Notes: generated by a model not told the origin, from the letters alone. A stretch of DNA of 20,000 nucleotides from an uncultured virus (IMG/VR IMGVR_UViG_3300030104_006589) (IMGVR_UViG_3300030104_006589:107010-127009); one strand, 5' to 3'. Numbered from the stretch's first letter, positions 5,752 to 18,918 are shown. Numbers and translations: made by a program.

Positions 5752-5780
5752 TTGCTTTTTCTGTGAAAGTATGTTATAGT
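5752..5780 (+). promoter_or_regulatory. sigma70 promoter (leaderless)
   Basis: TTGCTT-17-TATAGT with extended TG; ATG 6 nt after the -10 box. Confidence 0.75.
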
Positions 5781-5786
5781 TACTAC

Positions 5787-5987
5787 ATGAAAATTACAGA
5801 AGATCAAATCAACAAGTTCGTAGAAGATAATGACATGATGCCGCTTGGCGGCGATATGTTCGAAGATGCTGGCGGTCATGTCTGGCATGAAGCCAACATC
5901 ATGGACGAGATCGAAAGATCTCAGCCTCTTAATAACCTTTTCGGTGATGTCGCGGGTGCGCTTAATAAGCTCACCATAATAAAGTGA
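5787..5987 (+). CDS. Hypothetical protein (66 aa)
   Basis: MKITEDQINKF...; start reassigned to the leaderless ATG. Confidence 0.75.
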   Translation: MKITEDQINKFVEDNDMMPLGGDMFEDAGGHVWHEANIMDEIERSQPLNNLFGDVAGALNKLTIIK

Positions 5988-5996
5988 AATAAAATC

Positions 5997-6025
5997 TTGC
6001 ATTAAATCAAAATCTAGACTATAGT
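5997..6025 (+). promoter_or_regulatory. sigma70 promoter (leaderless)
   Basis: TTGCAT-17-TATAGT, ATG 6 nt downstream. Confidence 0.75.
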
Positions 6026-6031
6026 TACATC

Positions 6032-6238
6032 ATGACTGACAGCGAAAAGATCACCAAACTAATCGAAGCAAATTCAAGACTACGCGGAGAAATCTGCGGG
6101 GTATCGGGGCAAGTCTCTGGTATGTCAATGTGGTGCAACGATGCCGAGGCATCCGTATGGCTCAAGAAGGTTGAGGGCAGACTAGACGAAGCTCTCAAGC
6201 AAGACGACAAGGCGGTTTCTAAAATCATCTTCGGATAA
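6032..6238 (+). CDS. Hypothetical coiled-coil protein, paralog of 8559..8756
   Basis: Shared GVSG..S....W and (K/R)(V/I)E..LDEA motifs. Confidence 0.75.
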   Translation: MTDSEKITKLIEANSRLRGEICGVSGQVSGMSMWCNDAEASVWLKKVEGRLDEALKQDDKAVSKIIFG

Positions 6239-6256
6239 AATAAATCAAAATAATCC

Positions 6257-6284
6257 TTGCGTTTAACTCAATAACTGGTATACT
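6257..6284 (+). promoter_or_regulatory. sigma70 promoter (leaderless)
   Basis: TTGCGT-16-TATACT with extended TG, ATG 6 nt downstream. Confidence 0.75.
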
Positions 6285-6290
6285 ACTAAC

Positions 6291-6524
6291 ATGATAAAGC
6301 AATTCAAGAATGACAATGGCGAGATCGTTGACTGCGAAGAGATCGCTACCTGTTACCCATCTCATGCATGGTGGGAACTTAACAAGAAGCAACGCCAAGA
6401 AGCTGCCGACAAGAACAACAACGGCGAACTCGGCAAGAAGGGACGTTTCTACAACTCAACTAATGGAGTTGAGAAGTGGGTAGACACCGAGGCAAGGGTA
6501 TGGTGGTCTGAGGACTGCCGATAA
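6291..6524 (+). CDS. Hypothetical protein (77 aa)
   Basis: ORF directly after promoter. Confidence 0.75.
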   Translation: MIKQFKNDNGEIVDCEEIATCYPSHAWWELNKKQRQEAADKNNNGELGKKGRFYNSTNGVEKWVDTEARVWWSEDCR

Positions 6525-6563
6525 TAATCTAACAAAACAAAAAAACAAACTACTACCATCATC

Positions 6564-6806
6564 ATGAAATCATTCCTTAAATCATACATTGCACACACAC
6601 AACTTTCTTTACTGCTTTGCAGTATACTAAACCTTTCGCTTGTAGTCATAGCTATCTGGCTAGGACAAGGCGAGGCACTAGCTAACAGCATACGAGGCTG
6701 GCACGGTGGCGATGTTCTAACTGTTATGTTTGGGCTTCCGTTAGTGTGGGGCTTCATTAGTGCAGTGTTAGACACAGGCATCAATATCTTTCATCAGAAA
6801 TTCTAA
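6564..6806 (+). CDS. Small membrane protein
   Basis: Two hydrophobic segments. Confidence 0.65.
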   Translation: MKSFLKSYIAHTQLSLLLCSILNLSLVVIAIWLGQGEALANSIRGWHGGDVLTVMFGLPLVWGFISAVLDTGINIFHQKF

Positions 6807-6819
6807 CAAAACAACAACC

Positions 6820-6939
6820 ATGGACAAGCGAGCACAATCCAAACACCGCAAGCAACTGAAGCGCAACCGCAAGAATAAAATCATTCGGATGCAGAAGGTT
6901 GCCGAGAAGCGCAGAGAAAAACTTCAAAAAACAACTTGA
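6820..6939 (+). CDS. Very basic small protein (39 aa)
   Basis: Own translation MDKRAQSKHRKQLKRNRKNKIIRMQKVAEKRREKLQKTT. Confidence 0.55.
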   Translation: MDKRAQSKHRKQLKRNRKNKIIRMQKVAEKRREKLQKTT

Positions 6940-6972
6940 CAGGTAGTAGAGTTAAGAGTAAGTAAAAACCCT

Positions 6973-7052
6973 CGTAACTCGTTGGTCATCAACGAGTTAC
7001 GCAGGGCGGGCGATCCCGCGCTCCGTAAGTCGTTAACAGTCAACGAGTTACA
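6973..7052. repeat. Double-palindrome element copy 1
   Basis: CGTAACTCGTTG-GTCAT-CAACGAGTTACG + 22 bp GC spacer + CGTAAGTCGTTA-ACAGT-CAACGAGTTACA. Confidence 0.95.
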
Positions 7053-7098
7053 CAGCTTAACACGCAGAAAAAAAATACAATAAAAACACAAAAAGAAC

Positions 7099-7127
7099 TT
7101 GACTTTTATCTCAGCCTGTGGTATAGT
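7099..7127 (+). promoter_or_regulatory. sigma70 promoter (leaderless)
   Basis: TTGACT-17-TATAGT with TGTG extension, ATG 5 nt downstream. Confidence 0.8.
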
Positions 7128-7132
7128 TAGCC

Positions 7133-7360
7133 ATGCTTACTTCATATGACCTTTGTGTTTCCGCTGTCCGTTTCATCCGCTTCGACGTTTCTAAGGCTCA
7201 TCGCTACGCGATGCTTGTCGATGCCTTCGATGGCGTTGCTGATGTCGATAATCACACCATTCAAAAGGTGTTGTTGTTGGCATACGATGCCCGCGATGCG
7301 GGTGACGACATCCGCGACTTTCGCGGCACTTGCGAGTTCATCCACAGGATGGCTTGCTAA
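7133..7360 (+). CDS. Hypothetical protein, paralog of 8806..9120
   Basis: DIRDFRGTCEFI vs DIHDFRGVCENI. Confidence 0.75.
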   Translation: MLTSYDLCVSAVRFIRFDVSKAHRYAMLVDAFDGVADVDNHTIQKVLLLAYDARDAGDDIRDFRGTCEFIHRMAC

Positions 7361-7383
7361 GTGAAAAAAAACGAAAATAAATC

Positions 7384-7411
7384 TTGCTTTTATCTCAAAT
7401 TCGACTATACT
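7384..7411 (+). promoter_or_regulatory. sigma70 promoter (leaderless)
   Basis: TTGCTT-16-TATACT, ATG 6 nt downstream. Confidence 0.7.
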
Positions 7412-7417
7412 ACTACT

Positions 7418-7711
7418 ATGACAAATCAGGAAGCTTACAACCACGGTTACAACGGCACTCTCACCCTCGACGAGCTTATGGCTCAGTTTGAGGCTCCCGC
7501 CTGTCACGCATACGATGAGCCGCCGCAGTTCTCTGCGTGGCGGTCAGGGGCGCAGGATGCCGCATATGATGCGGAGTCTGATGCCACCGAGTGCGACATG
7601 GAGCCTGATGACTTCATGACTGACGGCGAGGCTGATGCCGATGCCCTCGCCTCCGCTGGCTATGGCACGGATGAGGATTATGGCTTCTATGGCGACGAGT
7701 GTTTCGCGTAA
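7418..7711 (+). CDS. Highly acidic protein (97 aa)
   Basis: 24 D/E, 1 R, 0 K; C-terminal ADALASAGYGTDEDYG. Confidence 0.75.
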   Translation: MTNQEAYNHGYNGTLTLDELMAQFEAPACHAYDEPPQFSAWRSGAQDAAYDAESDATECDMEPDDFMTDGEADADALASAGYGTDEDYGFYGDECFA

Positions 7712-7718
7712 GAAGCGC

Positions 7719-7798
7719 CGTAACTACCTAAGCCTCAACAAGTTACGGAGCGCGGGCCAGCCCGCCCCGCGTAAGTCGTTGACACTCAACAGGTTACG
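7719..7798. repeat. Double-palindrome element copy 2
   Basis: Palindromes 7719-7747 and 7770-7798, 22 bp spacer. Confidence 0.95.
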
Positions 7799-7878
7799 CA
7801 AGTTCTTACAAAAAACCTTGTCAAGTAAAAAGTGAAAAAAAATCACAATAAAAAAAGAAAAAAAAAGATAAAAAGCCC

Positions 7879-7907
7879 TTGACTTTTGTTTGATTGTGTG
7901 GTATAGT
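7879..7907 (+). promoter_or_regulatory. sigma70 promoter (leaderless)
   Basis: A-tracts, TTGACT-17-TATAGT, ATG 6 nt downstream. Confidence 0.8.
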
Positions 7908-7913
7908 TACCAC

Positions 7914-8183
7914 ATGAAAATGATTAACTTTCCTACTCTTATCGCTGATGCCCTTCGTAACGCTCCACGCTACGCGCATGAGGATGCCCCTCTGTTGGTC
8001 GCTCAACTTGTGCGCGACTTCCCTATCATTCGCCCCGATGTAGTCGAAGAGGTTGTGAGCATGGCTTGCGACATGATCGGCAACTCTAACTTTCGGGCTA
8101 ACCTTGAGCTTGAGCGCAACCCCGATGTGATGAGCATCATGCACATCTGCATGATAAAGCACAACGGTAGCGTTGAGTGCTAA
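7914..8183 (+). CDS. Hypothetical protein (89 aa)
   Basis: MKMINFPTLIADALR...; leaderless start. Confidence 0.7.
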   Translation: MKMINFPTLIADALRNAPRYAHEDAPLLVAQLVRDFPIIRPDVVEEVVSMACDMIGNSNFRANLELERNPDVMSIMHICMIKHNGSVEC

Positions 8184-8210
8184 AAAAAGAAAAATAAATC
8201 ATCTTTTCTC

Positions 8211-8239
8211 TTTACTTTACCCTAAATCTATCGTATACT
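8211..8239 (+). promoter_or_regulatory. sigma70 promoter (leaderless)
   Basis: TTTACT-17-TATACT, ATG 6 nt downstream. Confidence 0.7.
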
Positions 8240-8245
8240 ACCAGC

Positions 8246-8497
8246 ATGACAGTTAAGAAAGACCGCCCCTACTACGTTATCCTTACAGGTGAGATCGCCA
8301 AGCCCGTTGTGTTTGGTGGTAGCCACAACCTGCGTTTTAGCGAGCGCATAATGAAAAACCCGCTCGCCTTCCCCAAGGGAGCATGGAAGACCATGATCAC
8401 TTTCCCTAACGAGGAAGCCGCTTATGCATCAGAGTATAAGCAGGGTCTTGAGATCGCAAACGGTCGCTTTGAATGGCGACCTCTCAGCAGGGGATAA
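8246..8497 (+). CDS. Hypothetical protein (83 aa)
   Basis: ORF after promoter; begins MTVKK like 8806. Confidence 0.75.
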   Translation: MTVKKDRPYYVILTGEIAKPVVFGGSHNLRFSERIMKNPLAFPKGAWKTMITFPNEEAAYASEYKQGLEIANGRFEWRPLSRG

Positions 8498-8523
8498 AAA
8501 AAGAAAAAAAAGCATCTTTTCTC

Positions 8524-8552
8524 TTGCAATAATTCAAATCATAGAGTATAGT
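8524..8552 (+). promoter_or_regulatory. sigma70 promoter (leaderless)
   Basis: TTGCAA-17-TATAGT, ATG 6 nt downstream. Confidence 0.75.
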
Positions 8553-8558
8553 TACATC

Positions 8559-8756
8559 ATGACAGAACAAGAACAAATCGACCAACTCAAAGACCAAATC
8601 TTTAAACTCCAAATGGTAATGAAAGGAGTTTCAGGCATCGCCTCCGCAGGTGCTTCATGGCAGGAAACCTCTGGCTTTAACAAGCAGACCTTCAAAAGAA
8701 TCGAGAGCCAACTTGATGAAGCAGTCGAGGAAATCAACATGACCCCGACCCCATAA
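8559..8756 (+). CDS. Hypothetical coiled-coil protein (65 aa), paralog of 6032..6238
   Basis: MTEQEQIDQLKDQIFKLQMVMKGVSGIASAGASW...KRIESQLDEAV. Confidence 0.75.
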   Translation: MTEQEQIDQLKDQIFKLQMVMKGVSGIASAGASWQETSGFNKQTFKRIESQLDEAVEEINMTPTP

Positions 8757-8771
8757 AACCAAAAATAAATC

Positions 8772-8799
8772 TTGCGTTTATCTCAATCTCTACTATACT
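8772..8799 (+). promoter_or_regulatory. sigma70 promoter (leaderless)
   Basis: TTGCGT-16-TATACT, ATG 6 nt downstream. Confidence 0.7.
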
Positions 8800-8805
8800 A
8801 AAATC

Positions 8806-9120
8806 ATGACAGTTAAAAAACCAGCATTCATCTACTCCGTAATCGTTGAAGTTCTCAAGGCGGCTCGCACTGGTGAGCAGTCGGCTCATATAGAACTAGA
8901 AACAGTTGACAGCTACACAGCCGCCGTCATTCTCGATATGTGTAACTCCGCAACCGCTGACGCTAGCGATATCCACGACTTCCGTGGAGTCTGCGAGAAC
9001 ATACTGAAAACAGTCTTGCGCTTGCGTAGGGACACCCGCCCAGACATTCACCCGCTCTGCCGTGCCAATCTCATGAAAGAGGACTTGATGATCTCCACCG
9101 ACGACCTGACCGTGGCGTAA
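8806..9120 (+). CDS. Hypothetical protein, paralog of 7133..7360
   Basis: Shared VD..T...L......DI.DFRG.CE.I motif. Confidence 0.75.
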   Translation: MTVKKPAFIYSVIVEVLKAARTGEQSAHIELETVDSYTAAVILDMCNSATADASDIHDFRGVCENILKTVLRLRRDTRPDIHPLCRANLMKEDLMISTDDLTVA

Positions 9121-9146
9121 AAAAAAAGAAAAAAACCGCTTGACAG

Positions 9147-9226
9147 CGTAACTCCTTGACGCTTAAGGACTTACGCAGCGCGGGCCTCCCCGCGCCGCGT
9201 AACTCGTTGATACTCAACGACTTACG
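9147..9226. repeat. Double-palindrome element copy 3
   Basis: Palindromes 9147-9175 and 9198-9226, 22 bp spacer. Confidence 0.95.
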
Positions 9227-9293
9227 ATACTTACTACTCTATTTACCTATTTATATTCTGACCTGCGACCTGCAAAAAAAAACAAAAAAAGCC

Positions 9294-9321
9294 TTGCGTT
9301 TCCTCCAGCCTGTGGTATAGT
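9294..9321 (+). promoter_or_regulatory. sigma70 promoter (leaderless)
   Basis: TTGCGT-16-TATAGT with TGTG extension; near-duplicate of 10780-10807. Confidence 0.8.
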
Positions 9322-9327
9322 TACACC

Positions 9328-9480
9328 ATGACAATCGAAGAGCTAGCAAAGCAAGACCCCCGCGAAATGTTCACCCACGACCCCCGTGAGCTTCAGGAGT
9401 TGCTCGCGGAGGTTCACGATGAGTTGGGGGATCGCCACCCCAGTTTCTCCACCGACAACGACCAACCTACTACCGACTAA
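9328..9480 (+). CDS. 50-aa acidic protein with DPRE repeat, copy A (not in ORF track)
   Basis: MTIEELAKQDPREMFTHDPRELQELLAEVHDELGDRHPSFSTDNDQPTTD; 39/50 identical to 10814..10966. Confidence 0.85.
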   Translation: MTIEELAKQDPREMFTHDPRELQELLAEVHDELGDRHPSFSTDNDQPTTD

Positions 9481-9484
9481 AATC

Positions 9485-9724
9485 ATGAGCCAGAACAACA
9501 TCTATAAGATGACAGAAATCGAGCACCAGCAGAACCCGCCTTCGTGCGGGGGCAACTGGGAGTATGGGTCTGTGACCCGTGTGTGTATGTCGCGCTCGCC
9601 CAAGGTGGCGTTTGCGATGAGTGGCGACATCACCGTGCGCTATGAGGGCGTGGACGGTGTGCCTATCATGCGCGAGCGGGTGTTCACCAAGGGCGGAAAA
9701 GAGATCTGGCGCAAATACGACTAG
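9485..9724 (+). CDS. Hypothetical protein (79 aa)
   Basis: MSQNNIYKMTEIEH...; ATG 4 nt after previous stop. Confidence 0.7.
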   Translation: MSQNNIYKMTEIEHQQNPPSCGGNWEYGSVTRVCMSRSPKVAFAMSGDITVRYEGVDGVPIMRERVFTKGGKEIWRKYD

Positions 9725-9740
9725 GCCGCGTAATAACCCG

Positions 9741-9820
9741 CGTAACTCACTAAGCGTCAACGAGTTACGCAGCGCGGGCCAGCCCCTCCTCCGTAAGTCG
9801 TTGATACTCAACGACTTATA
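9741..9820. repeat. Double-palindrome element copy 4
   Basis: Palindromes 9741-9769 and 9792-9820, 22 bp spacer. Confidence 0.95.
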
Positions 9821-9890
9821 CTAGTTTACCTTTCTATTTGTCTATTTATATCCTGACCTACAGTCTAGAAAAAAAAAGAATAAAAAATGC

Positions 9891-9918
9891 TTGCAAGTTT
9901 CTAAATCTGTGGTATACT
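9891..9918 (+). promoter_or_regulatory. sigma70 promoter (leaderless)
   Basis: TTGCAA-16-TATACT with TGTG extension, ATG 6 nt downstream. Confidence 0.8.
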
Positions 9919-9924
9919 ACCCTT

Positions 9925-10140
9925 ATGATAAATCGAAAAGACCAAATCCACGCCACACTTTACAACGCCGCCATTGACGGTGCTTTCTCTCTCTCTGTCG
10001 AAGATGGAGAGATTGTTGCTACTGACCTCTTGTGGGCTAACGCCGCCGACAAACCACCTAAGTTTGTTATCCGCTTTGTAGGTAGTGACATCTCTGATGT
10101 AGATGTCGAGATTGATAACGGAGTTAGAATGGGAGCATAG
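9925..10140 (+). CDS. Hypothetical protein (71 aa)
   Basis: MINRKDQIHATLYNAAIDG...; leaderless start. Confidence 0.7.
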   Translation: MINRKDQIHATLYNAAIDGAFSLSVEDGEIVATDLLWANAADKPPKFVIRFVGSDISDVDVEIDNGVRMGA

Positions 10141-10142
10141 TT

Positions 10143-10448
10143 ATGAAAACAGACAATAAGCAAAAAGAAGAAGTTACTTTGGAGCGCAGGATCTGTGATC
10201 GCTGTAGAGATGTTGATGGATTAACCTTCGGTTACATCGGTAACTTTGAACGCTGGGGCGATGACCGAAAGCTTTTCATCTGGATTGATGAAGACGACAT
10301 GAGAGAGAGGAATGGTAATCACGCTAATCTCTGGGAGTGTGTTGCTCGCGATCTTGATGTGAAATCTGCCTGTCTTGCTTTTGCGGCAATCAAAGGTTTT
10401 CAAATGGGTAAAACTTATGCTGATATCAAAATCAACAAGAAGTTCTAA
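10143..10448 (+). CDS. Hypothetical protein (101 aa)
   Basis: ORF coupled to upstream gene; FGYIGNFERWGDDR motif. Confidence 0.75.
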   Translation: MKTDNKQKEEVTLERRICDRCRDVDGLTFGYIGNFERWGDDRKLFIWIDEDDMRERNGNHANLWECVARDLDVKSACLAFAAIKGFQMGKTYADIKINKKF

Positions 10449-10515
10449 TGATTGAAATAATAATAGCACCAATCTTTTCTTTTCTTTTCCCTATAATAAT
10501 AGCTATAATAATCTT

Positions 10516-10680
10516 ATGCATGAACCGATAACAGAACTACAAAGAGAACTAGGCGACCTTGAGAGAAACATCAGGTTTCTTCAACCAGATAAAATGAGGT
10601 GGACTCATAACCGCAAAGCACTAATTGATCAATTAGACTGGATAAAAGAACTAGCTCGCAGAATAAGGGACTCTAAGTAA
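10516..10680 (+). CDS. Hypothetical helical protein (54 aa)
   Basis: Own translation MHEPITELQRELGDLERNIRFLQPDK...; TATAAT 6 nt upstream; stop lies inside element 5. Confidence 0.6.
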   Translation: MHEPITELQRELGDLERNIRFLQPDKMRWTHNRKALIDQLDWIKELARRIRDSK

Positions 10681-10750
10681 CTGATACTTAACGACTTACA
10701 GGAGCGCCCCCGCCCCGCGCCCGTAACTCGTTGAGCGTCAACAACTTACG
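10672..10750. repeat. Double-palindrome element copy 5
   Basis: Palindromes 10672-10700 and 10722-10750, 21 bp spacer. Confidence 0.9.
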
Positions 10751-10779
10751 AAGAATCGTAAAAAAACATAAAAAAGCTC

Positions 10780-10807
10780 TTGCGATTTCTCCAGCCTGTG
10801 GTATAGT
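10780..10807 (+). promoter_or_regulatory. sigma70 promoter (leaderless)
   Basis: TTGCGA-16-TATAGT with TGTG extension, ATG 6 nt downstream. Confidence 0.8.
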
Positions 10808-10813
10808 TCCACT

Positions 10814-10966
10814 ATGACAATCGACGAGCTAGCAAAGCAAGATCCCCGCGAGATTTTCGACCACGACCCTCGCGAAATTCAAGAACTCCTCGCGGAAGTC
10901 CACGCGGATCTGGGCGACCGCGATCCACGTTTCTCCACCGACGAAGATCAACTCCCTACTGACTAA
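10814..10966 (+). CDS. 50-aa acidic protein with DPRE repeat, copy B (not in ORF track)
   Basis: MTIDELAKQDPREIFDHDPREIQELLAEVHADLGDRDPRFSTDEDQLPTD. Confidence 0.85.
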   Translation: MTIDELAKQDPREIFDHDPREIQELLAEVHADLGDRDPRFSTDEDQLPTD

Positions 10967-10971
10967 AAATT

Positions 10972-11187
10972 ATGGAATGGAAACCTACACCTACGCCAAA
11001 AGCTCCCGCTATCGAGGGCTTTCTCACTGCCATTAACGGCATTCACCGCTGCGATGCTATCGAGCGGAAGACTTGCGCCACTTGTGGCGCGAGTGTCACC
11101 CTCGACTCGTTCAAGGACGAGTTGAGCCTGAAGGAGTTCCACATTTCGGCCATGTGCCAGACTTGTCAGGACTCGGTTTTCGGGTAA
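10972..11187 (+). CDS. Small zinc-finger protein
   Basis: CATC...FKDELSLKEFHISAMCQTCQD, two CxxC pairs. Confidence 0.8.
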   Translation: MEWKPTPTPKAPAIEGFLTAINGIHRCDAIERKTCATCGASVTLDSFKDELSLKEFHISAMCQTCQDSVFG

Positions 11188-11191
11188 CCCG

Positions 11192-11270
11192 CATAACTTG
11201 CTAAGTCTTAAGGACTTACGCAAGCGCGGCGGGGGCGCAGCCGTAACTCGTTGAGAATCAACGAGTTATG
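11192..11270. repeat. Double-palindrome element copy 6
   Basis: Palindromes 11192-11220 and 11242-11270, 21 bp spacer. Confidence 0.95.
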
Positions 11271-11309
11271 AAGGAAGTGAAAAAAAATGAATTTTAATGC
11301 AGAAAGTGC

Positions 11310-11337
11310 TTGCTTATTTGTCGAAATGCTGTATAAT
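11310..11337 (+). promoter_or_regulatory. sigma70 promoter without adjacent ATG
   Basis: TTGCTT-16-TATAAT. Confidence 0.6.
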
Positions 11338-11420
11338 GTGGCTCGTAACAAGTTAACCAACCTACACACCAACCATGCCACTGAACTTCCTTAGAAAGAA
11401 AAAAAAGACAATAAATTCAC

Positions 11421-11448
11421 TTGCAATCCCTGTGAATTCGATTATAGT
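11421..11448 (+). promoter_or_regulatory. sigma70 promoter (leaderless)
   Basis: TTGCAA-16-TATAGT, ATG 7 nt downstream. Confidence 0.7.
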
Positions 11449-11455
11449 TAAGCCT

Positions 11456-11746
11456 ATGCAAATACAACGCCCAACACAAGACAGAGAGCTTCGGCTCTTC
11501 CCTCAAAACCCCGTCCATCTCGCATCTAACCTTACAGGTAAAACTGTTCGGTATGAGAACTTTCACAACAAGTCCTCCGTTGCTGATCCCAAGGTTCGCA
11601 CCTTCAAGATCAAATCCATCGAGGATGTTTGCAAGTCCGAGGCAAGCGGTAGCAGATATGTAACCGCAAAAGTCCAAGACGTTGATGACGGAGGGACTGA
11701 GAAATACAGAAATCTTATCCTTGACGGGATTGAGGTGATCGTGTAG
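11456..11746 (+). CDS. Hypothetical beta-rich protein (96 aa)
   Basis: MQIQRPTQDRELRLF...; alternative upstream start at 11375. Confidence 0.7.
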   Translation: MQIQRPTQDRELRLFPQNPVHLASNLTGKTVRYENFHNKSSVADPKVRTFKIKSIEDVCKSEASGSRYVTAKVQDVDDGGTEKYRNLILDGIEVIV

Positions 11747-11760
11747 GTTACCCCACAACA

Positions 11761-11820
11761 GGGGAGCGAGGGGAGGAAAGCCCCAACGGAGTGCTACCAC
11801 CCTCGTTCCCCAACTTTTTC
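11761..11820 (+). terminator. GC-rich stem-loop with large loop followed by T-run; terminator or small structured RNA
   Basis: GGGGAGCGAGGG (11761-11772) pairs with CCCTCGTTCCCC (11800-11811), then AACTTTTTC. Confidence 0.5.
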
Positions 11821-11821
11821 C

Positions 11822-11850
11822 TTTACAAATAATAAACAACATACTAAATT
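11822..11850 (+). promoter_or_regulatory. sigma70 promoter (leaderless)
   Basis: TTTACA-17-TAAATT, ATG 6 nt downstream. Confidence 0.6.
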
Positions 11851-11856
11851 AGCATC

Positions 11857-12078
11857 ATGTCTAAATCATCTGAATCACTTCGCATTGAAGTCAAAACACA
11901 GGAACAAGCTGCATTGCTTAACTATGCACTTGGAATCACCCATCAACACCTTTCAAGCCGTCTTGAGGAGGTCGAAGATGACAAGCTCGACACCTTCATG
12001 GATAACATTAAGTGGACACGCAAACACGCAAAGTCTCTTAATGACAAGTTTTCTCTTAGTGAGTTACAGAATTCCTAG
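11857..12078 (+). CDS. Hypothetical protein (73 aa)
   Basis: ORF after promoter, helical. Confidence 0.7.
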   Translation: MSKSSESLRIEVKTQEQAALLNYALGITHQHLSSRLEEVEDDKLDTFMDNIKWTRKHAKSLNDKFSLSELQNS

Positions 12079-12089
12079 CTTTCTAGAAA

Positions 12090-12470
12090 AGGTCGCGCAT
12101 TGGCGGGGGCAGAACCGCAAAGCGATACAGGATAACCTGAAGCCCTTCGACCTCCAACAAACAAAATTGTTGGTTAAAAAGCCAATCACTGCAATAGGGT
12201 GCAGCCTAAAATCCCCTAATAACAACAACCCCGTGAATTGTCTGTGACTAGCGGGGGGCTAAACACACAGACGCTCCCAGTGGTGGGCAATACCGCTAGG
12301 TGGTAACAGTGACCAGACCCTTAATTGACTGGCACTCGTCAACAAGCCGACTCTCTCCCGCCACGCTTTACTAGTCAGCCTCTGACGGGAGGGAGATACC
12401 ACTTTCTTTGCTGATGCGTAGTAGCCCCGCTCCCCTTTTTGTTTGCTTATTGTTTTAAGGGGGGCGGGGT
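12090..12470 (+). ncRNA. Candidate large structured ncRNA with multiple pseudoknots
   Basis: Dense series of stems and at least two H-type pseudoknots found by eye (see findings). Confidence 0.55.
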
Positions 12471-12479
12471 TTCGCTTTG

Positions 12480-12555
12480 GGGAGTGTAGCTCAATGGTCA
12501 GAGCACACGACTCATAATCGTTAGGTTGCGGGTTCGAATCCCGCCGCTCCCACCA
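12480..12555 (+). tRNA. tRNA with CAT anticodon (Ile2 or elongator Met; not initiator)
   Basis: Acceptor GGGAGTG/CGCTCCC-ACCA, anticodon arm ACGA-CTCATAA-TCGT, T arm GCGGG-TTCGAAT-CCCGC; lacks the initiator GGG/CCC anticodon stem and 1:72 mismatch. Confidence 0.95.
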
Positions 12556-12632
12556 CAACTCATTGATACTGAAGGACTTAGGGCTGCGCCCCCGCCGCGC
12601 AGCCGTAACTCGTTGAGAATCAACGAGTTATG
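12554..12632. repeat. Double-palindrome element copy 7 (abuts tRNA CCA)
   Basis: Palindromes 12554-12582 (degenerate) and 12604-12632, 21 bp spacer. Confidence 0.9.
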
Positions 12633-12703
12633 AAGGAAAATCATGCACACTTTCCTAGCCCTGTCAAGCAGAAAAAAAAATAAAAGAAAAAGCAAAAAAA
12701 GGG

Positions 12704-12731
12704 TTGCACAAAATGAAATCTGTGGTATAGT
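12704..12731 (+). promoter_or_regulatory. sigma70 promoter (leaderless)
   Basis: TTGCAC-16-TATAGT with TGTG extension, ATG 6 nt downstream. Confidence 0.8.
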
Positions 12732-12737
12732 TCTTGC

Positions 12738-13502
12738 ATGTTGATACTCGCTAAAAACAAAGTCGAGTCCGAGCAGTTGGCCGAGGTGCCGACTCCTTCC
12801 GCTACGGACACTCACACTCCAATTCCTCACGCGCTTCTCGCTGATCGCACTCGCAACGTCATTGCGACCGCTGGTCTTGAGATCACTCAAGAGGAACACG
12901 CGCTTGCGCGTAATGGCCTTCGCTACTTCGGAGGGTTCGCCCTGAAGGGACAAGGCATCGAGGGCGATGATCGCCAGTTGGTGCTTGGTCTTCGCAACGC
13001 ACACGATAAGTCCTTCGCGGCTTCCGTCTGCATCGGCAACCAAATGATGGTTTGCGAAAACCTTTGCTTCTCTTCGGATGTGAAGCTCGCTCGCCGTCAC
13101 ACGGTGAATATCCTTCGCGACCTTAACACGGTTCTTTCTTCCGCTGTTAGTCGCGTTGTGTCTCACTGGCACGACATGGGCAAGCGCATCGCCTCCTACA
13201 AGGAGACGGAGCTTTCCAAGGAACGTGCTTCCGATCTGGTCGTTGACCTTGCGGAGATGGGTGCGTTTCCCGCTCGCTCCGTTTACAAGGCGGTGCAAGA
13301 GTTCCGCAACCCTCGCCATGAGGAGTTCAAGGGCGGTTCGCTCTGGACGCTTTACAACGGGGTGACCGAACACCTCAAGGGTGGCGACCTTTCCAAGTTG
13401 CCACAGCGCACGATGACCACTCAGTCTATCTTCGACAAGATCGCGGGACACGCTCCTGAGATCGTCGAAGTTGAAGCCGAGGCGGTCGCGCTTCCCGCTT
13501 AA
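12738..13502 (+). CDS. DUF932 family protein
   Basis: PIPH, LGLRNAHDKS, VCENLCF, RRHT, SLWTLYNGVTE motifs typical of DUF932/DUF945-like phage and plasmid proteins. Confidence 0.8.
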   Translation: MLILAKNKVESEQLAEVPTPSATDTHTPIPHALLADRTRNVIATAGLEITQEEHALARNGLRYFGGFALKGQGIEGDDRQLVLGLRNAHDKSFAASVCIGNQMMVCENLCFSSDVKLARRHTVNILRDLNTVLSSAVSRVVSHWHDMGKRIASYKETELSKERASDLVVDLAEMGAFPARSVYKAVQEFRNPRHEEFKGGSLWTLYNGVTEHLKGGDLSKLPQRTMTTQSIFDKIAGHAPEIVEVEAEAVALPA

Positions 13503-13533
13503 CCCATAACTGGCCCTGCCGTTAACCTACCAA

Positions 13534-13563
13534 GCCCGTCCCCGAAAGGGGGCGGGTTTTTTT
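13534..13563 (+). terminator. Rho-independent terminator
   Basis: GCCCGTCCCC-GAAA-GGGGGCGGGT followed by T-run. Confidence 0.9.
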
Positions 13564-13590
13564 CTTGACATGGGTTTTAGTAAGAAGTGT

Positions 13591-13669
13591 TGTAAGTCGT
13601 TGATACTCAAGGACTTACGGGCGCGGGGCGGGGGCGCAGCTATAAGTCCTTAAGCGTCAAGGAGTTACG
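13591..13669. repeat. Double-palindrome element copy 8
   Basis: Palindromes 13591-13619 and 13641-13669, 21 bp spacer. Confidence 0.95.
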
Positions 13670-13699
13670 CATAATCGTCATTTTTTAATCATTTAAATG

Positions 13700-13727
13700 T
13701 TGACTGGCTCGGTATTTGTGATATATT
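13700..13727 (+). promoter_or_regulatory. sigma70 promoter (leaderless)
   Basis: TTGACT-16-TATATT with TGTG extension, ATG 6 nt downstream. Confidence 0.75.
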
Positions 13728-13733
13728 TGGCGC

Positions 13734-13988
13734 ATGGCTAACTCCTACAGCATCCAAAGAACTGATACAAATAGAATCCCCGCCCCGTTTGACTTTACGT
13801 TTGAGTGGGATAATGGAACAGAAAGAACATTTATAGTTGTTTCATTGCATGGCGCAAAGGCACTAGCCGAAACATTTAGAAACTTCGGTTACGAAGAGGA
13901 AGAAGGTAGTGTTAGGTTTGCTTCAGATGCGCGAACTTTGGAAAGGCTTTCACCGATTGCGAAGTTGGCGAAGGGGAATAAAAATTAA
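13734..13988 (+). CDS. Hypothetical protein (84 aa)
   Basis: ORF after promoter. Confidence 0.75.
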   Translation: MANSYSIQRTDTNRIPAPFDFTFEWDNGTERTFIVVSLHGAKALAETFRNFGYEEEEGSVRFASDARTLERLSPIAKLAKGNKN

Positions 13989-13994
13989 TTTTAA

Positions 13995-14022
13995 TTGACA
14001 ACACCCGCTTTTGTGGTATACT
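13995..14022 (+). promoter_or_regulatory. sigma70 promoter (leaderless)
   Basis: TTGACA-16-TATACT with TGTG extension, ATG 6 nt downstream. Confidence 0.85.
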
Positions 14023-14028
14023 ACGCAC

Positions 14029-14715
14029 ATGTCAAAGCTCCTTAACTCTGGAAACTATAAAACCCGCAAGGGCGAAAAATACGGTTGGAAGACCTATGGC
14101 TTGCACCTTGCACCATTTAACTTATCAGGAAAAAATGTTTGCTCTTCTGCTACTGTTGGTTGCTCTACTGCTTGTCTCAATACTGCTGGCCGTGGAATCA
14201 TGCATTCCGTTCAAGATGCCCGAATTAAAAAGACGAGAAGGTTTTTCGAAGATCGGGATGGATTCCTATCGCAGTTATACAAAGAAATCCAAAGCTCGGT
14301 TAAAAGCGCAACGCGAAAGGAATTAAAGAGTTGTTTCCGCTTGAATCTCACAAGCGATCTCCCGTGGGAGGGGTTGGTTGTAAAATACTTTCCAAGGCTA
14401 CAGTTTTACGACTATACCAAACACCTAAAAAGATTCGTTAGGTTTCTGGAGAGTAAGTTCCCGTCCAACTATCACCTCACATACTCCCGCAGTGAAGAGA
14501 CTCCTGATACGCTAGTAAAGAGTTTGTGTGCAAGTGGTGGCAATGTCGCCGTGGTTTTTCGCAATCACCTTCCCGAAAAATGGCTTGGACTTGAAGTGAT
14601 CGACGGGGATGATTCCGACTTGCGCTTTGAGGATGGCAAGGGTAAGATTGTTGGGTTACTTGAAAAAGGACTCGCTAAAAAAGACAAGACAGGATTTGTT
14701 GTTGAACCAGAATAA
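14029..14715 (+). CDS. GP88-like phage protein (Cys cluster)
   Basis: CSSATVGCSTACL three-Cys motif, FRLNLTSD, FYDYTK, NYHLTYS, DGDDSDLRF; start reassigned to ATG 14029. Confidence 0.75.
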   Translation: MSKLLNSGNYKTRKGEKYGWKTYGLHLAPFNLSGKNVCSSATVGCSTACLNTAGRGIMHSVQDARIKKTRRFFEDRDGFLSQLYKEIQSSVKSATRKELKSCFRLNLTSDLPWEGLVVKYFPRLQFYDYTKHLKRFVRFLESKFPSNYHLTYSRSEETPDTLVKSLCASGGNVAVVFRNHLPEKWLGLEVIDGDDSDLRFEDGKGKIVGLLEKGLAKKDKTGFVVEPE

Positions 14716-14719
14716 ACCA

Positions 14720-14878
14720 ATGAAAGAAGAACTCCAAGAAATACTAGACGACCACAGGTCACAGATAATTGATATGCTCAAGGAAGATGCACAAGAGGCT
14801 CTCGTTGTAGATGTCGAAGCGAACCTCGACCGCATGGTAACCGAAATAAACGAATTGTTAGGCTCTAGTTACGACTAG
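14720..14878 (+). CDS. Small acidic helical protein (52 aa)
   Basis: MKEELQEILDDHRSQIIDMLKEDAQE...; ATG 4 nt after previous stop. Confidence 0.65.
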   Translation: MKEELQEILDDHRSQIIDMLKEDAQEALVVDVEANLDRMVTEINELLGSSYD

Positions 14879-14881
14879 AGC

Positions 14882-14960
14882 CGTAACTCACTCAGGGTCA
14901 AGGACTTAGGGCTGCGGCCCCGCCGCGCAGCCGTAACTCGTTGAGGTTCAACGAGTTATG
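14882..14960. repeat. Double-palindrome element copy 9
   Basis: Palindromes 14882-14910 and 14932-14960, 21 bp spacer. Confidence 0.95.
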
Positions 14961-14996
14961 CATGAATAAAAAATGCATTTTTAATAATAAAAAAGG

Positions 14997-15024
14997 TTGC
15001 ATAAGTCTGAGCGTGTGTTATACT
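14997..15024 (+). promoter_or_regulatory. sigma70 promoter (leaderless)
   Basis: TTGCAT-16-TATACT with TG extension, ATG 6 nt downstream. Confidence 0.8.
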
Positions 15025-15030
15025 ACCCCT

Positions 15031-15177
15031 ATGGAAAAAATAACAGCAAACGATGTTTTACACTGGCATGGCTCAGACCATGACATTAAAGAATTAGCTC
15101 AAGTGATCGCACACATAGTGAATGGTGATTACGATATAGAGCTAGCCAAGCAGGAAATTGAAATGTTAAAAGATTAA
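15031..15177 (+). CDS. Hypothetical protein (48 aa)
   Basis: MEKITANDVLHWHG...; leaderless start. Confidence 0.7.
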   Translation: MEKITANDVLHWHGSDHDIKELAQVIAHIVNGDYDIELAKQEIEMLKD

Positions 15178-15182
15178 GTAAA

Positions 15183-15557
15183 ATGGGACTAGATCAATAC
15201 GCAAAAAAAGTAAAGAGAGAATTCAATCATGAGACTCTCACCGAGACAATCACAAAAACTGAAATCGCTTACTGGCGCAAACACAATGCGCTAGAAGGTT
15301 TGATGGCAGGGCTTTACCGAGAGAAGACAGGAGATGAAGGGGAGTTTAATTGTAAAACTCTTACTCTTGATTCTAACGACCTAGACAATCTTGAAAAGGT
15401 TGTAAAGGGTGGGGATCTTCCTGAGACAGTAGGTTTCTTTTTTGGTGATTGCACCAAGGACAACGAGGAATACAAAGAAATAGACCTTGAGTTTATAGCC
15501 AAGGCTAGGAAATGTCTTGCTAATGGGTTTGATGTAGAATATACTTCTTGGTGGTAA
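15183..15557 (+). CDS. Conserved phage hypothetical protein (MGLD...YWRK type)
   Basis: MGLDQY, EIAYWRKHNAL, GFFFG, terminal YTSWW pattern recurrent in phages. Confidence 0.8.
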   Translation: MGLDQYAKKVKREFNHETLTETITKTEIAYWRKHNALEGLMAGLYREKTGDEGEFNCKTLTLDSNDLDNLEKVVKGGDLPETVGFFFGDCTKDNEEYKEIDLEFIAKARKCLANGFDVEYTSWW

Positions 15558-15558
15558 G

Positions 15559-15735
15559 ATGGAAGAACGACCCTACAAAGTATACCTGAGAGAGATCCAC
15601 TGGCAGGAAGCTGTCGTGGATGCCGTGAGCCGAGCCGATGCCATTCAGAAAGTATTGGATGGTGACGGTCAATACGGGAACGGCACTAGATACGAAGAAA
15701 CCTGCGAGGACGGGCATAGAGTTGAAGAGATATGA
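15559..15735 (+). CDS. Hypothetical protein (58 aa)
   Basis: Own translation MEERPYKVYLREIHWQEAVVDAVSRADAIQKVLDG...; ATGA overlap with next gene. Confidence 0.65.
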   Translation: MEERPYKVYLREIHWQEAVVDAVSRADAIQKVLDGDGQYGNGTRYEETCEDGHRVEEI

Positions 15736-15947
15736 ATATAATCAGACACATAAGCCCCGATAATAGATTTTTATATAATATAAAATACAATGATGACTAC
15801 ACTCTTGATACTATCGGCATACATCTTCTTTTACCCGAAGGCGTATGGAGTCCTGCGGTTTCTCCAGAAATGTTCCCGTCATCACAATTGGAATCTATCA
15901 AAGAAATGTGTTGCGAGCTAATCCGTCGAGTTATATCCTCTGAGTAG
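15732..15947 (+). CDS. Hypothetical protein (71 aa)
   Basis: Coupled ORF. Confidence 0.6.
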   Translation: MNIIRHISPDNRFLYNIKYNDDYTLDTIGIHLLLPEGVWSPAVSPEMFPSSQLESIKEMCCELIRRVISSE

Positions 15948-16017
15948 GATATAAAAAAATGCAGGAAATTTGGATAATATTTTTAGTTTTAGTAACCTTA
16001 ACAATTTTTTCATTAGG

Positions 16018-16236
16018 ATGGCTATAAAAGGAAGACCAGCAGGAACAGGAGGCATCTATAAAAAAAGAGAAACCCACAATAAGCAAGTTTCACATAGCGA
16101 CCGACAAACGCAATACATAACCCACCTTTCTAAAAGCGTTGGTGAGGCTTGCGACAGGTGGCTAGATAAGAAGGGACTGAAGGGTAAAAGCTGGAAAAAG
16201 CAGAACGACGAAATGTTTAAGAAGAAAGTTTCATAG
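16018..16236 (+). CDS. Basic hypothetical protein (72 aa)
   Basis: MAIKGRPAGTGGIYKKR...; K-rich. Confidence 0.65.
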   Translation: MAIKGRPAGTGGIYKKRETHNKQVSHSDRQTQYITHLSKSVGEACDRWLDKKGLKGKSWKKQNDEMFKKKVS

Positions 16237-16356
16237 TGAGGAGTATGACTCTGGTTAGGAATAGAGTGTAAAGAGAACTTACAACGGGGTGTATAGGGTT
16301 TCTGACGATTGCCCTTTGGTCGCCCTCATTGAACACCTAGCCAGAGTCCCACTAAA

Positions 16357-16512
16357 ATGAAAAAGAAGAAAACAAAACTGCCGACTAACTCCCTAGAGGG
16401 ACGGAATATGGTGCGTCACCAGATGCCACCACCGACCACTAGTCACACGGATAAAAAGAAGCAGTTAAATAAGAAAGGTTGTCGTAAGTCGTTGGGCCTC
16501 AACGACTTATAG
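16357..16512 (+). CDS. Basic small protein (51 aa) ending in element 10
   Basis: Own translation MKKKKTKLPTNSLEGRNMVRHQMPPPTTSHTDKKKQLNKKGCRKSLGLNDL. Confidence 0.55.
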   Translation: MKKKKTKLPTNSLEGRNMVRHQMPPPTTSHTDKKKQLNKKGCRKSLGLNDL

Positions 16513-16561
16513 CTTCGCGGCGGCTTTCGAGTCGTAAGTCCCTAAGTATCAATGAGTTACA
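16483..16561. repeat. Double-palindrome element copy 10
   Basis: Palindromes 16483-16511 and 16533-16561, 21 bp spacer. Confidence 0.9.
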
Positions 16562-16578
16562 GATGATGATTTAAGGAT

Positions 16579-16604
16579 AAAAAAAACCGCACTTTCGTGC
16601 GGTT
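16579..16604 (-). terminator. Rho-independent terminator (minus strand)
   Basis: Minus strand AACCGCAC-GAAA-GTGCGGTT followed by T-run, downstream of the SprT-like gene. Confidence 0.85.
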
Positions 16605-18146: not shown

Positions 18147-18323
18147 TTAATCGTCTAGTAAAGGAGGTAGTGGAGGAGCTTCTTTAGCTATATCTAAAGG
18201 CATATTATCTGGGTATTTTACCTTCCCTTTAAACGGCTTCTTTACTTCTTTTTGTAGCCCCTCTAACTCACTATAAACAGACCTTCTATTATTCTGCTTC
18301 TTCCTGCAATCTGATTCTTTCAT
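18147..18323 (-). CDS. Hypothetical protein (58 aa)
   Basis: MKESDCRKKQ...; overlaps the end of the HNH gene. Confidence 0.5.
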   Translation of the reverse strand: MKESDCRKKQNNRRSVYSELEGLQKEVKKPFKGKVKYPDNMPLDIAKEAPPLPPLLDD

Positions 18324-18831
18324 TACATTCTTTCCTTGCAAACTCTCCAAAATATTTTATCTCTCCTTCACTGCGAGCTTGTATAGCGTCTTCTTTATTA
18401 ATAAAGCTTCCTAAATGCTTACTTTCCCCGTTGACCTTAATCCTTGCTAGCCATCTTTTCTCTCTTTTATTCCAATGAACTCCTTTAAAGCCACTGGTAT
18501 TGTTTTTATTTAAACTTGCATTTATGATGTTCTGCGAGGGAGTAGCTAATCTAAGGTTTTTAATTCTATTATCTAATCTATTACGATTTATATGGTCTAC
18601 TTGCTTTTGTAAGGGGTCTACACCATGATATATGTAATAAGCAAGTCTACTGCATAGATAGAACTTTTTCTTGTATCTTGTTTGCAGATAACCCACACCG
18701 TTATCTCGTCCCACTGTTTTACCTTCAAGGTTACGAAACGGTGTTTTCTTCCAAATAAGTATCCCTGTATTTGGATTATAATCTATATTTTCTCTTAGTT
18801 CTTCTAGTGGTGGTAATGGTTTATATCTCAT
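18289..18831 (-). CDS. HNH endonuclease with C-terminal AP2 DNA-binding domain
   Basis: VDHINRNRLDNRIKNLRLAT (HNH) and NTSGFKGVHW...WLARI...HLGSF (AP2). Confidence 0.92.
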   Translation of the reverse strand: MRYKPLPPLEELRENIDYNPNTGILIWKKTPFRNLEGKTVGRDNGVGYLQTRYKKKFYLCSRLAYYIYHGVDPLQKQVDHINRNRLDNRIKNLRLATPSQNIINASLNKNNTSGFKGVHWNKREKRWLARIKVNGESKHLGSFINKEDAIQARSEGEIKYFGEFARKECNERIRLQEEAE

Positions 18832-18842
18832 ATTAAATTATT

Positions 18843-18918
18843 TGGTAGCGGGAGTGGGACTTGAACCCACACTTTAGCGATTTTAAGTCGCTTGCCTCTG
18901 CCATTGGGCTATCCCGCC
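18843..18918 (-). tRNA. tRNA-Leu(TAA) with short variable loop
   Basis: Minus strand GGCGGGA TAGCCCAATGGCAGAGGC A AGCGA-CTTAAAA-TCGCT AAAGT GTGGG-TTCAAGT-CCCAC TCCCGCT ACCA. Confidence 0.93.

Follow-up and report, generated by a model that had tools for sequence, protein, structure and literature searches.

We report that the early region of an uncultured virus, covered by 20,000 nucleotides of its sequence (IMG/VR IMGVR_UViG_3300030104_006589, positions 107010-127009; this whole stretch is here referred to as the window), is partitioned by ten elements of 79-80 bp, E1 to E10, each with two palindromes around a GC-rich core, and that these elements are points where modules of small genes were deleted, swapped and reordered and are themselves homogenised within a genome. 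On the basis of related phages, bacterial genomes and metagenome contigs we conclude that the elements probably are composite boundary elements, i.e. paired protein-binding sites, that have been reused as linkers in homologous recombination in a way that recalls the promoter-early stem-loops (PeSLs) of T4-type phages and the bacterial interspersed mosaic elements (BIMEs). This would extend the shuffling of promoter/boundary cassettes, so far described in T4-type myoviruses, to an abundant clade of uncultured marine and freshwater phages with a boundary element that differs in kind, and the conserved sequence of which can be used as a search handle for the clade. Moreover, a phage repeat is linked to a palindrome dispersed in cultivable gut bacteria (Akkermansia muciniphila and Fibrobacter), and the binding protein can therefore be fished out there experimentally. 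Finally, together with 16 sigma70 units that look leaderless, the elements provide a picture of how such phages might organise and renew their host-takeover genes.

Structure, placement and distribution of the elements

All ten elements are present at the starts given in a preliminary description of the window, and the two 29-bp palindromes that it had assigned to each copy, with 50-51 bp between the centres of a pair, were recovered by consensus search and register alignment. Specifically, the 29-nt consensus (≤3 mismatches) matched 13 times in the window and 0 times in each of 200 dinucleotide shuffles, while a looser half-site pattern recovered 18 of the 20 half-sites and gave no match in the window beyond 6973-16561. 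A repeat finder returned the ten copies as two families (D1 and D3), and whole copies are also mutually reverse-complementary. The copies and their immediate surroundings are as follows:

E1, 6973-7052: palindrome 6973-7001, GC-rich core 7002-7023, palindrome 7024-7052; 167 nt past the last called stop codon
E2, 7719-7798: starts 8 nt past the stop codon of the gene at 7418-7711
E3, 9147-9226: second palindrome is an exact match to the consensus
E4, 9741-9820: 80 bp
E5, 10672-10750: first palindrome overlaps the stop codon of the gene at 10516-10680
E6, 11192-11270: 42-nt identity with E7 (11235-11276 is the same as 12597-12638)
E7, 12554-12632: abuts the 3' end of tRNA-Met (12480-12555)
E8, 13591-13669: 32 nt past the intrinsic terminator at 13532-13559
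E9, 14882-14960: starts 4 nt past the stop codon at 14878
E10, 16483-16561: most degenerate copy; overlaps the end, with the stop codon, of the open reading frame (ORF) at 16357-16512

In each copy a GC-rich core of 21-22 nt is enclosed by two 29-bp palindromes; the length is 80 bp with a 22-nt core in copies 1-4, and 79 bp with a 21-nt core in copies 5-10. The core, which has a G+C content of 80% among 135 unique copies, is found in either orientation. The entire element is near-palindromic, with its two palindromes being inverted copies of each other and its 37-nt arms 78% complementary. Successive elements are spaced 520-1601 bp apart and delimit modules with 1-6 or 7 small genes each, much as described earlier, and G+C makes up 45-55% of the element region but 35-40% of its flanks.

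E2, E3, E4, E6 and E9 start 4-27 nt past a stop codon, and E5 and E10 overlap one. The preliminary claim that every copy sits at or shortly after a stop codon, a tRNA end or a terminator holds for E2-E10 and is loose for E1. A sigma70-like promoter begins 29-81 bp downstream of copies 1-9 (the E6 promoter at 11311 was read by eye), in agreement with the roughly 30-80 bp proposed before, and E10 is followed by a bidirectional terminator (16585-16604) with no promoter downstream. Scanning the window against Rfam gave nothing at the gathering score except two tRNAs. We suggest that each element separates the end of an early transcription unit from the sigma70 promoter, with its A-rich upstream region, of the leaderless-type unit that follows, and that it would offer two dyad-symmetric sites of ~27-29 bp, spaced 50-51 bp with a stiff GC-rich core in between.

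Sequence conservation of the elements extends across a large clade of siphovirus-like phages, uncultured and 100-150 kb in size, from marine and freshwater sources; in these phages the copies are clustered in the early region. The exact half-site pattern is present in at least 183 IMG/VR stretches, which fall in 94 contigs, several of these being 100-148 kb long. These 94 contigs, among the matches listed, together with the window gave 668 half-sites, which were grouped as 326 paired elements and 90 unpaired. Distances between successive half-sites included 50 bp (144 cases), 58 bp (52), 51 bp (21), 48 bp (20) and 52 bp (15), and six of 236 elements were inside an ORF according to crude ORF calls. 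In one contig of 147,748 bp, rated 100% complete (G001), all 14 half-sites are located at 24.0-27.0 kb and 140.3-142.9 kb, and six of its nine leaderless-type promoters (see below) lie beside them at 20.9-29.0 kb. Its gene content is siphovirus-like, including a tape measure protein of 2018 aa, PolIII-alpha, DnaB, primase and ribonucleotide reductase, and it also encodes a RecA-like protein, two RuvB-like ATPases and a PD-(D/E)XK nuclease. Compared with cultured phages, its PolIII-alpha and terminase reach 24-32% identity at most. The ends of this contig repeat each other (17577-23281 and 141906-147652; 5.8 kb, 96.5% identity), and it may be a permuted or strain-mixed assembly with a true length perhaps nearer to 124 kb.

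Megablast of positions 6900-16600 against 50,697 phage records gave no match, and neither did tblastn of a 418-aa protein against cultured phages, and the early region of the window is present in at least 18 marine DNA runs from ~8 studies. A literature search with the 12-mers of the arms returned nothing relevant, one occurrence being in a primer table and the others judged on titles and abstracts; nor was there anything relevant among the matches listed for phage palindromic repeats, early genes and leaderless genes. Short contigs of metagenome-assembled genomes (MAGs) classified as 'Enterobacterales' (11.9 kb), Verrucomicrobiales and Flavobacteriaceae also carry many double elements, in some of which the spacing is 42 bp and the core 15 nt; these contigs resemble phage sequences that ended up in bacterial bins, and at best they hint weakly at a host.

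The palindromes as probable protein sites in double-stranded DNA

The palindromes are most likely read as double-stranded DNA by a putative dimeric DNA-binding protein, and the primary role of the elements would be architectural or insulating, in that a pair of proteins, which may bend the DNA, would be bound ahead of every strong early promoter. Paired protein-binding sites were one option of the preliminary description, and this option fits the statistics of the sequence. When the 135 unique copies were oriented by their flanking genes, as called with a crude ORF caller, the stems contained 204 G:U-type pairs and 205 A:C pairs, i.e. there is no strand preference. Among 64 aligned copies 84.7% of the stem cells are paired compared with 83.4 ± 0.5% after shuffling within columns; the pairing is hence explained by column conservation, and it is the retention of the consensus by each arm, rather than compensatory change, that makes the sites palindromic. 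At arm position 6 each arm has C or G regardless of the other, and this position is unpaired in 31-53% of the copies. The match to the consensus is mirror-symmetric, with 0.91-0.93 for the inner arms next to the core and 0.86 for the outer arms. Arm conservation without compensatory pairing together with the lack of a G:U bias favours a symmetric protein site in double-stranded DNA over an RNA hairpin.

An alternative that we consider unlikely is that the element acts at the RNA level, where three consecutive hairpins or one long hairpin would end each early transcript by serving as a terminator, as a site of RNase III processing or as a 3' stabiliser. Most of the window copies begin 0-27 nt past stop codons, as would suit such a role, and a contig from an RNA library runs from the gene at 7418-7711 past its stop codon and into E2 as far as 7781; however, the two RNA runs cover a small share of the window, and the contigs show neither ends nor strand and may represent DNA carry-over; stretches that lack RNA cover are uninformative. 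As regards folding, the 29-nt cores of one subclass of relatives form a strong hairpin (mean -14.5 compared with -7.1 kcal/mol for shuffles), with TTTT directly after it in 15 of 18 cases on the sense strand and in 1 of 18 on the antisense strand, and in this subclass the core appears to have become a real terminator hairpin. In contrast, the 21-nt cores, which are the window class, fold barely better than shuffles (-7.6 versus -6.8 kcal/mol), and TTTT was present in none of 64. The window copies likewise lack a U-tract, and an intrinsic terminator on the + strand was called at 0 of the 10 window elements, yet ordinary terminators adjoin E8 and E10. Specifically, the canonical terminator between the DUF932 gene and E8 indicates that the host uses ordinary terminators and that E8 is not needed for termination. 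The core orientation, which flips among copies, and the occurrence of the same palindrome between divergent genes in bacteria (see below) also argue against an RNA element.

With respect to the protein that would bind the paired sites, we tentatively suggest an IHF/DNABII-type protein as a possible candidate, because the invariant arm bases spell the consensus of the integration host factor (IHF) in a symmetric register. The best conserved arm bases, read outward from the dyad as TCAA-N4-TTA, match WATCAANNNNTTR, which is the IHF consensus as given in PMC5896051. The arm frequencies at these positions (T+2 0.95, C+3 0.88, A+4 1.00, A+5 0.90, T+10 0.99, T+11 1.00 and A+12 0.97) are partly fixed by the search pattern. 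The centre and position +1 were left free by the pattern and provide an independent check: among 519 unique sites W (A or T) is found at position 0 in 0.78 and A at +1 in 0.42, and W-A is present on at least one half in ~66% of the sites compared with ~22% expected (hand tally of loop counts). In view of the structure of IHF bound to DNA, the register about the dyad would be the one needed for a symmetric IHF site.

The exact palindrome was also found in 17 stretches of GTDB species representatives, with ~0.02 expected by chance, and the carriers include chromosomal contigs of Fibrobacter, Akkermansia, a Lentisphaerae MAG and Verrucomicrobiales. With ≤2 mismatches to a degenerate pattern two Akkermansia genomes have 15 and 22 dispersed copies and two Fibrobacter genomes 13 each, while the reversed control gave 0-1. 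The bacterial copies are single palindromes, and in one Akkermansia genome 18 of 20 are intergenic with 10 of the 20 located between divergent genes. In one Fibrobacter genome (G013; L256, C34:100279-100612) an IHF-like DNABII gene has a copy directly upstream of it, and in another (G009; L255) a weaker, degenerate copy lies 139 nt upstream of an IHF-like paralogue.

In one of the Akkermansia genomes (G011; L210-L229) most copies have, at a distance of 4-12 nt, a second palindrome as a partner, which resembles TACAGCATT-N4-AATGCTGTA, and they are often located upstream of genes for GT2 glycosyltransferase, polysaccharide pyruvyl-transferase and acyltransferase; this pair looks like an undescribed regulatory composite. 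Neither the element palindrome nor the second palindrome was accepted as an inverton repeat, since the inverted-repeat motif of Akkermansia invertons, CGGATT..AATCCG where it is described in PMC13343947, differs from both. A 111-aa zinc-ribbon protein was also rejected as the binder, with no credible homologue in five palindrome-bearing bacterial genomes (best E = 0.0013 over 35 residues).

Exchange of modules and the promoter units

The closest relative of the window (L188; 8,182 bp) is 77-93% identical to it across the shared early blocks. In window gene coordinates the order in L188 is (6291, 6564)-E-(7914 ... 8806)-E-(7133, 7418)-E-(9328, 9485)-E and that of the window is (6291, 6564)-E1-(7133, 7418)-E2-(7914 ... 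8806)-E3-(9328, 9485)-E4, i.e. the modules 7133-7711 and 7914-9120 are exchanged. All junctions are inside elements, and one of the junction elements in L188 is clearly a hybrid, its left flank being that of E3 and its right flank that of E1. In two other relatives (L075 and L062) the GP88 gene is followed by a single element and then by the sequence past E10, the whole E9-E10 module being absent, and some of the relatives and of the metagenome contigs lack the tRNA-Met, their breakpoint being at the left edge of E7. Moreover, the L188 cores are more alike among themselves than to their positional counterparts in the window, and the 42 nt shared by E6 and E7, which reach 6 nt past the element and contain the sole exact 31-mer repeat between 5600 and 16700, are suggestive of a recent conversion tract; the two observations together point to ongoing conversion among the copies.

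Rearranged junctions were seen in contigs assembled from three marine DNA runs with mixed strains. Two skips end at elements, 9227>9834 (E3 end to E4 end) and 11800>12557 (to the edge of E7, with loss of the tRNA), a third (16494>16595), which removes E10, is found in all three runs, and back-joints at elements include 13563>6965, 10926>9146 and 9818>13600. Joints away from the elements also occur, e.g. 8573>8802 by which one promoter-gene unit is removed. Only E6 and E7 have a common exact 31-mer, and repeats within the sequence therefore do not explain the other joints.

Summed over all relatives, similarity ends internally at 170 points, of which 25 (14.7%) fall at element edges (within 12 nt), compared with 4.6% of the region, and 5 more are inside elements. 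The proposal that gene content is shuffled at the elements is supported by the L188 swap, the loss of the E9-E10 module and the deletions in contigs, and differences between relatives are enriched at the elements; they are not placed only there, and most breakpoints are elsewhere. Many of the element-free ends fall at the start of a -35 hexamer or just past a leaderless ATG, with four ends at 8523/8524, three at 7930 and eight at 14700-14716. Shuffling is not confined to the elements, and promoter-gene units are a second kind of shuffling unit. Exchange would proceed through homologous recombination or gene conversion between the 80-bp repeats, and likewise between the repeated promoters, i.e. 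by the PeSL mechanism of T4-type phages with no dedicated recombinase involved.

Several points weigh against paired binding sites that are reused as recombination linkers. The distance from element to promoter varies between 29 and 81 bp in the window, and more widely in relatives, which argues against a phased activator site. A DNABII gene was found in none of five related phage records, and among 121 Verrucomicrobiota 117 have an IHF-like protein and three the palindrome, with no co-occurrence signal. The register argument for a possible symmetric IHF site draws on general structural knowledge of IHF, and the orientation of the copies depends on the crude ORF calls. Of the 170 similarity ends, 80 fall at edges of genes or promoters that have no element and 60 fade out inside genes, and with breakpoints mostly element-free the elements are less privileged over the promoter repeats than a cassette picture implies. 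The metagenome contigs, being k-mer assemblies of mixed strains, give support and no proof of rearrangement within a lineage.

An integron- or pdif-like site-specific system, in which a host or novel phage recombinase would cut the palindromes and excise and reinsert promoter-bearing cassettes, had been put forward in the preliminary description and is in our view quite unlikely. Excision followed by reinsertion would give the L188 swap with all its junctions in elements. The clean element-to-element deletions in metagenome contigs and the high conservation of the site sequences also agree with such a system, and the 12-13 bp arms resemble half-sites of serine and tyrosine recombinases (the resemblance to the loxP arm noted earlier is trivial). 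However, a recombinase domain was found in none of the 49 window proteins scanned against Pfam, as also noted before, and in none of 100 of the 105 ORFs of at least 130 aa in G001. The tyrosine recombinase that might have co-occurred with the elements was likewise not found, as Phage_integrase (PF00589) was present in 0 of 5 related phage records, one of which is rated 100% complete; the corresponding figures were 0 of 5 for Resolvase and 0 of 3 for Y1_Tnp (PF01797), and positive controls matched in each of these searches. The gene clusters that most often accompany the elements in 52 contigs with at least 2 kb, i.e. PhoH (39), a 111-120 aa zinc-ribbon protein (36), a sigma-like protein (35), two unknown proteins (27 and 26) and GP88 (22), include no recombinase. 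In addition, as many or more breakpoints are at promoters and gene edges, the variable centre of the palindrome, which is of odd length, is just 3 bp, and crossovers appear spread along the element with homogenised cores as predicted for homologous exchange. T4-type PeSLs yield the same pattern through homologous recombination in the accounts of these motifs in PMC2839356 and PMC4122927.

We give a slim chance to a broader variant, in which the 27-bp palindrome would be the high-affinity, fully symmetric site of one conserved DNA-bending or recombination-promoting protein common to some bacteria of the Planctomycetes-Verrucomicrobia-Chlamydiae (PVC) and Fibrobacteres-Chlorobi-Bacteroidetes (FCB) groups, such as Akkermansia and Fibrobacter, and the marine host, and would have been paired into a phage 'integron' that excises and reinserts promoter-bearing early genes as circles by means of a host-supplied or unrecognised enzyme. 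It is also hardly probable that the elements are selfish and mobile, similar to miniature inverted-repeat transposable elements (MITEs) or to doublets of repetitive extragenic palindromic (REP) sequences forming hairpins (REPINs), and have propagated within the early region and, in the form of single palindromes, reached the chromosomes of some bacteria: the near-palindromic whole element, the core in either orientation, the intergenic location and the patchy occurrence in bacteria (3 of 121 Verrucomicrobiota and several Fibrobacter) would fit, but a transposase of the Y1 or REP-associated tyrosine transposase (RAYT) type is found in 0 of 3 related phage records, no consistent target-site duplications were seen by eye at the ten window copies, the copies are confined to one genome region with a fixed place between stop codon and promoter, and the bacterial copies are single palindromes, often in divergent promoter regions.

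The promoters that constitute the second kind of shuffling unit number 16 in the window, all sigma70-like (TTGnnn, 16-18 nt, TAYAnT), on the + strand and located at 5752..15033. An ATG lies 5-7 nt past the -10 hexamer in all 16, with a gap of exactly 6 nt in 13, and the ORFs opened by these ATGs encode 48-254 aa. This spacing is the geometry of leaderless mRNA, and the early genes look leaderless. About half of the 16 promoters have no element in front, and the same promoter/ATG geometry is seen in L188 and G001. The leaderless-type genes include those for DUF932 (12738-13502) and GP88 (14029-14715), and later genes inside the units are mostly without a Shine-Dalgarno sequence. The promoters and other features next to the elements are:

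Promoters 1-8, + strand, -35 starts at 5752, 5997, 6257, 7099, 7384, 7879, 8524 and 8772
Promoters 9-16, + strand, -35 starts at 9294, 9891, 10780, 11421, 12704, 13700, 13995 and 14997
tRNA-Met (CAT), 12480-12555, + strand, ends at E7
Canonical intrinsic terminator, 13532-13559, + strand, after the DUF932 gene

The small proteins of the early region are nearly all ORFans as judged by Pfam, where 26 small early proteins from the + strand (among 34 scanned) gave no family above the curated cut-off. The exceptions are the DUF932 and GP88-family proteins and, on the other strand, PhoH, a sigma-like protein, an HNH endonuclease and a SprT-like protein. Some early genes are paralogous: 9274-9482 and 10760-10968 represent a duplicated promoter-plus-gene unit of 209 nt with 80% identity, and the protein pairs encoded at 7133-7360 and 8806-9120 and at 6032-6238 and 8559-8756 have common motifs, which is consistent with duplication through unequal exchange. 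Upstream of the tRNA-Met ~400 nt (12080-12479) are without an ORF and ~80% conserved in relatives; the folding z-score for 12225-12480 is -2.4, a CopA-like match at 12390-12478 is sub-threshold (37 bits with a gathering score of 60), and the segment may be a structured non-coding RNA. The HNH_3 endonuclease gene (18289-18831, - strand), which adjoins tRNA-Leu (18843-18918), has a weak match to an AP2-like DNA-binding domain, and its product is likely a homing endonuclease.

Comparison with known systems

As in integrons with their attC sites and in the pdif modules of Acinetobacter, short imperfect palindromes bound small modules that vary between relatives. Integron cassettes are promoterless and attC sites are conserved in structure rather than in sequence, whereas the modules described here carry their own promoters and have sites conserved in sequence. 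The pdif site is 28 bp with an 11-bp arm, a 6-bp centre and an 11-bp arm, and has distinct XerC and XerD arms; here the layout is 13-3-13 with equivalent arms and conservation to within 2 bp of the dyad (T+2 95%). Five related phage records gave no IntI- or Xer-type gene, and the breakpoints are, in contrast to those systems, not restricted to the sites.

Extragenic repeats that bear IHF sites include the BIME/REP sequences of Escherichia coli, i.e. the reiterative ihf BIME (RIB) and repetitive IHF-binding palindromic (RIP) elements, and the Correia elements of Neisseria, which are MITEs. The Coxiella QMITE1 is an IHF-site-bearing MITE according to PMC5896051. In common with these, the elements described here are extragenic composite repeats of inverted palindromic units with a site of IHF consensus at the boundaries of transcription units, and both architectural or insulating roles and a role as recombination substrates have been proposed. 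The arrangement is the reverse of that in RIB and RIP, since here the IHF-like consensus is in the palindromes and the GC-rich unit is central. Further differences from BIME/REP are that a RAYT is found in 0 of 3 related phage records, and that there are tens of copies in one phage region and not hundreds genome-wide.

The comparison with PeSLs, which was made in the preliminary description, is an apt one. Recombination between PeSL copies results in indels and replacements among close relatives, as described by Arbiol et al. 2010 (PMC2839356) and Comeau et al. 2014 (PMC4122927), where PeSLs are small composite motifs between non-essential early genes in hyperplastic regions, with a structure-forming part beside a strong sigma70-like early promoter, and in both respects the elements are alike. 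The differences are that the lineage is unrelated, being siphovirus-like with a PolIII-alpha replicase and without a close cultured phage, and that the boundary element is an 80-bp double palindrome with conservation of sequence rather than of pairing and with no U-tract in the window; moreover, the promoters appear to drive leaderless genes, and the palindrome is also present in bacterial chromosomes. In line with PeSLs the repeated unit is a composite of promoter and stem-loop, with a promoter at nine of the ten window elements and small ORFans as flanking genes, and indels and replacements end in the motifs, as seen for the L188 swap, for 25 of the 170 similarity ends, for the ends at promoter starts and for the joints in metagenome contigs.

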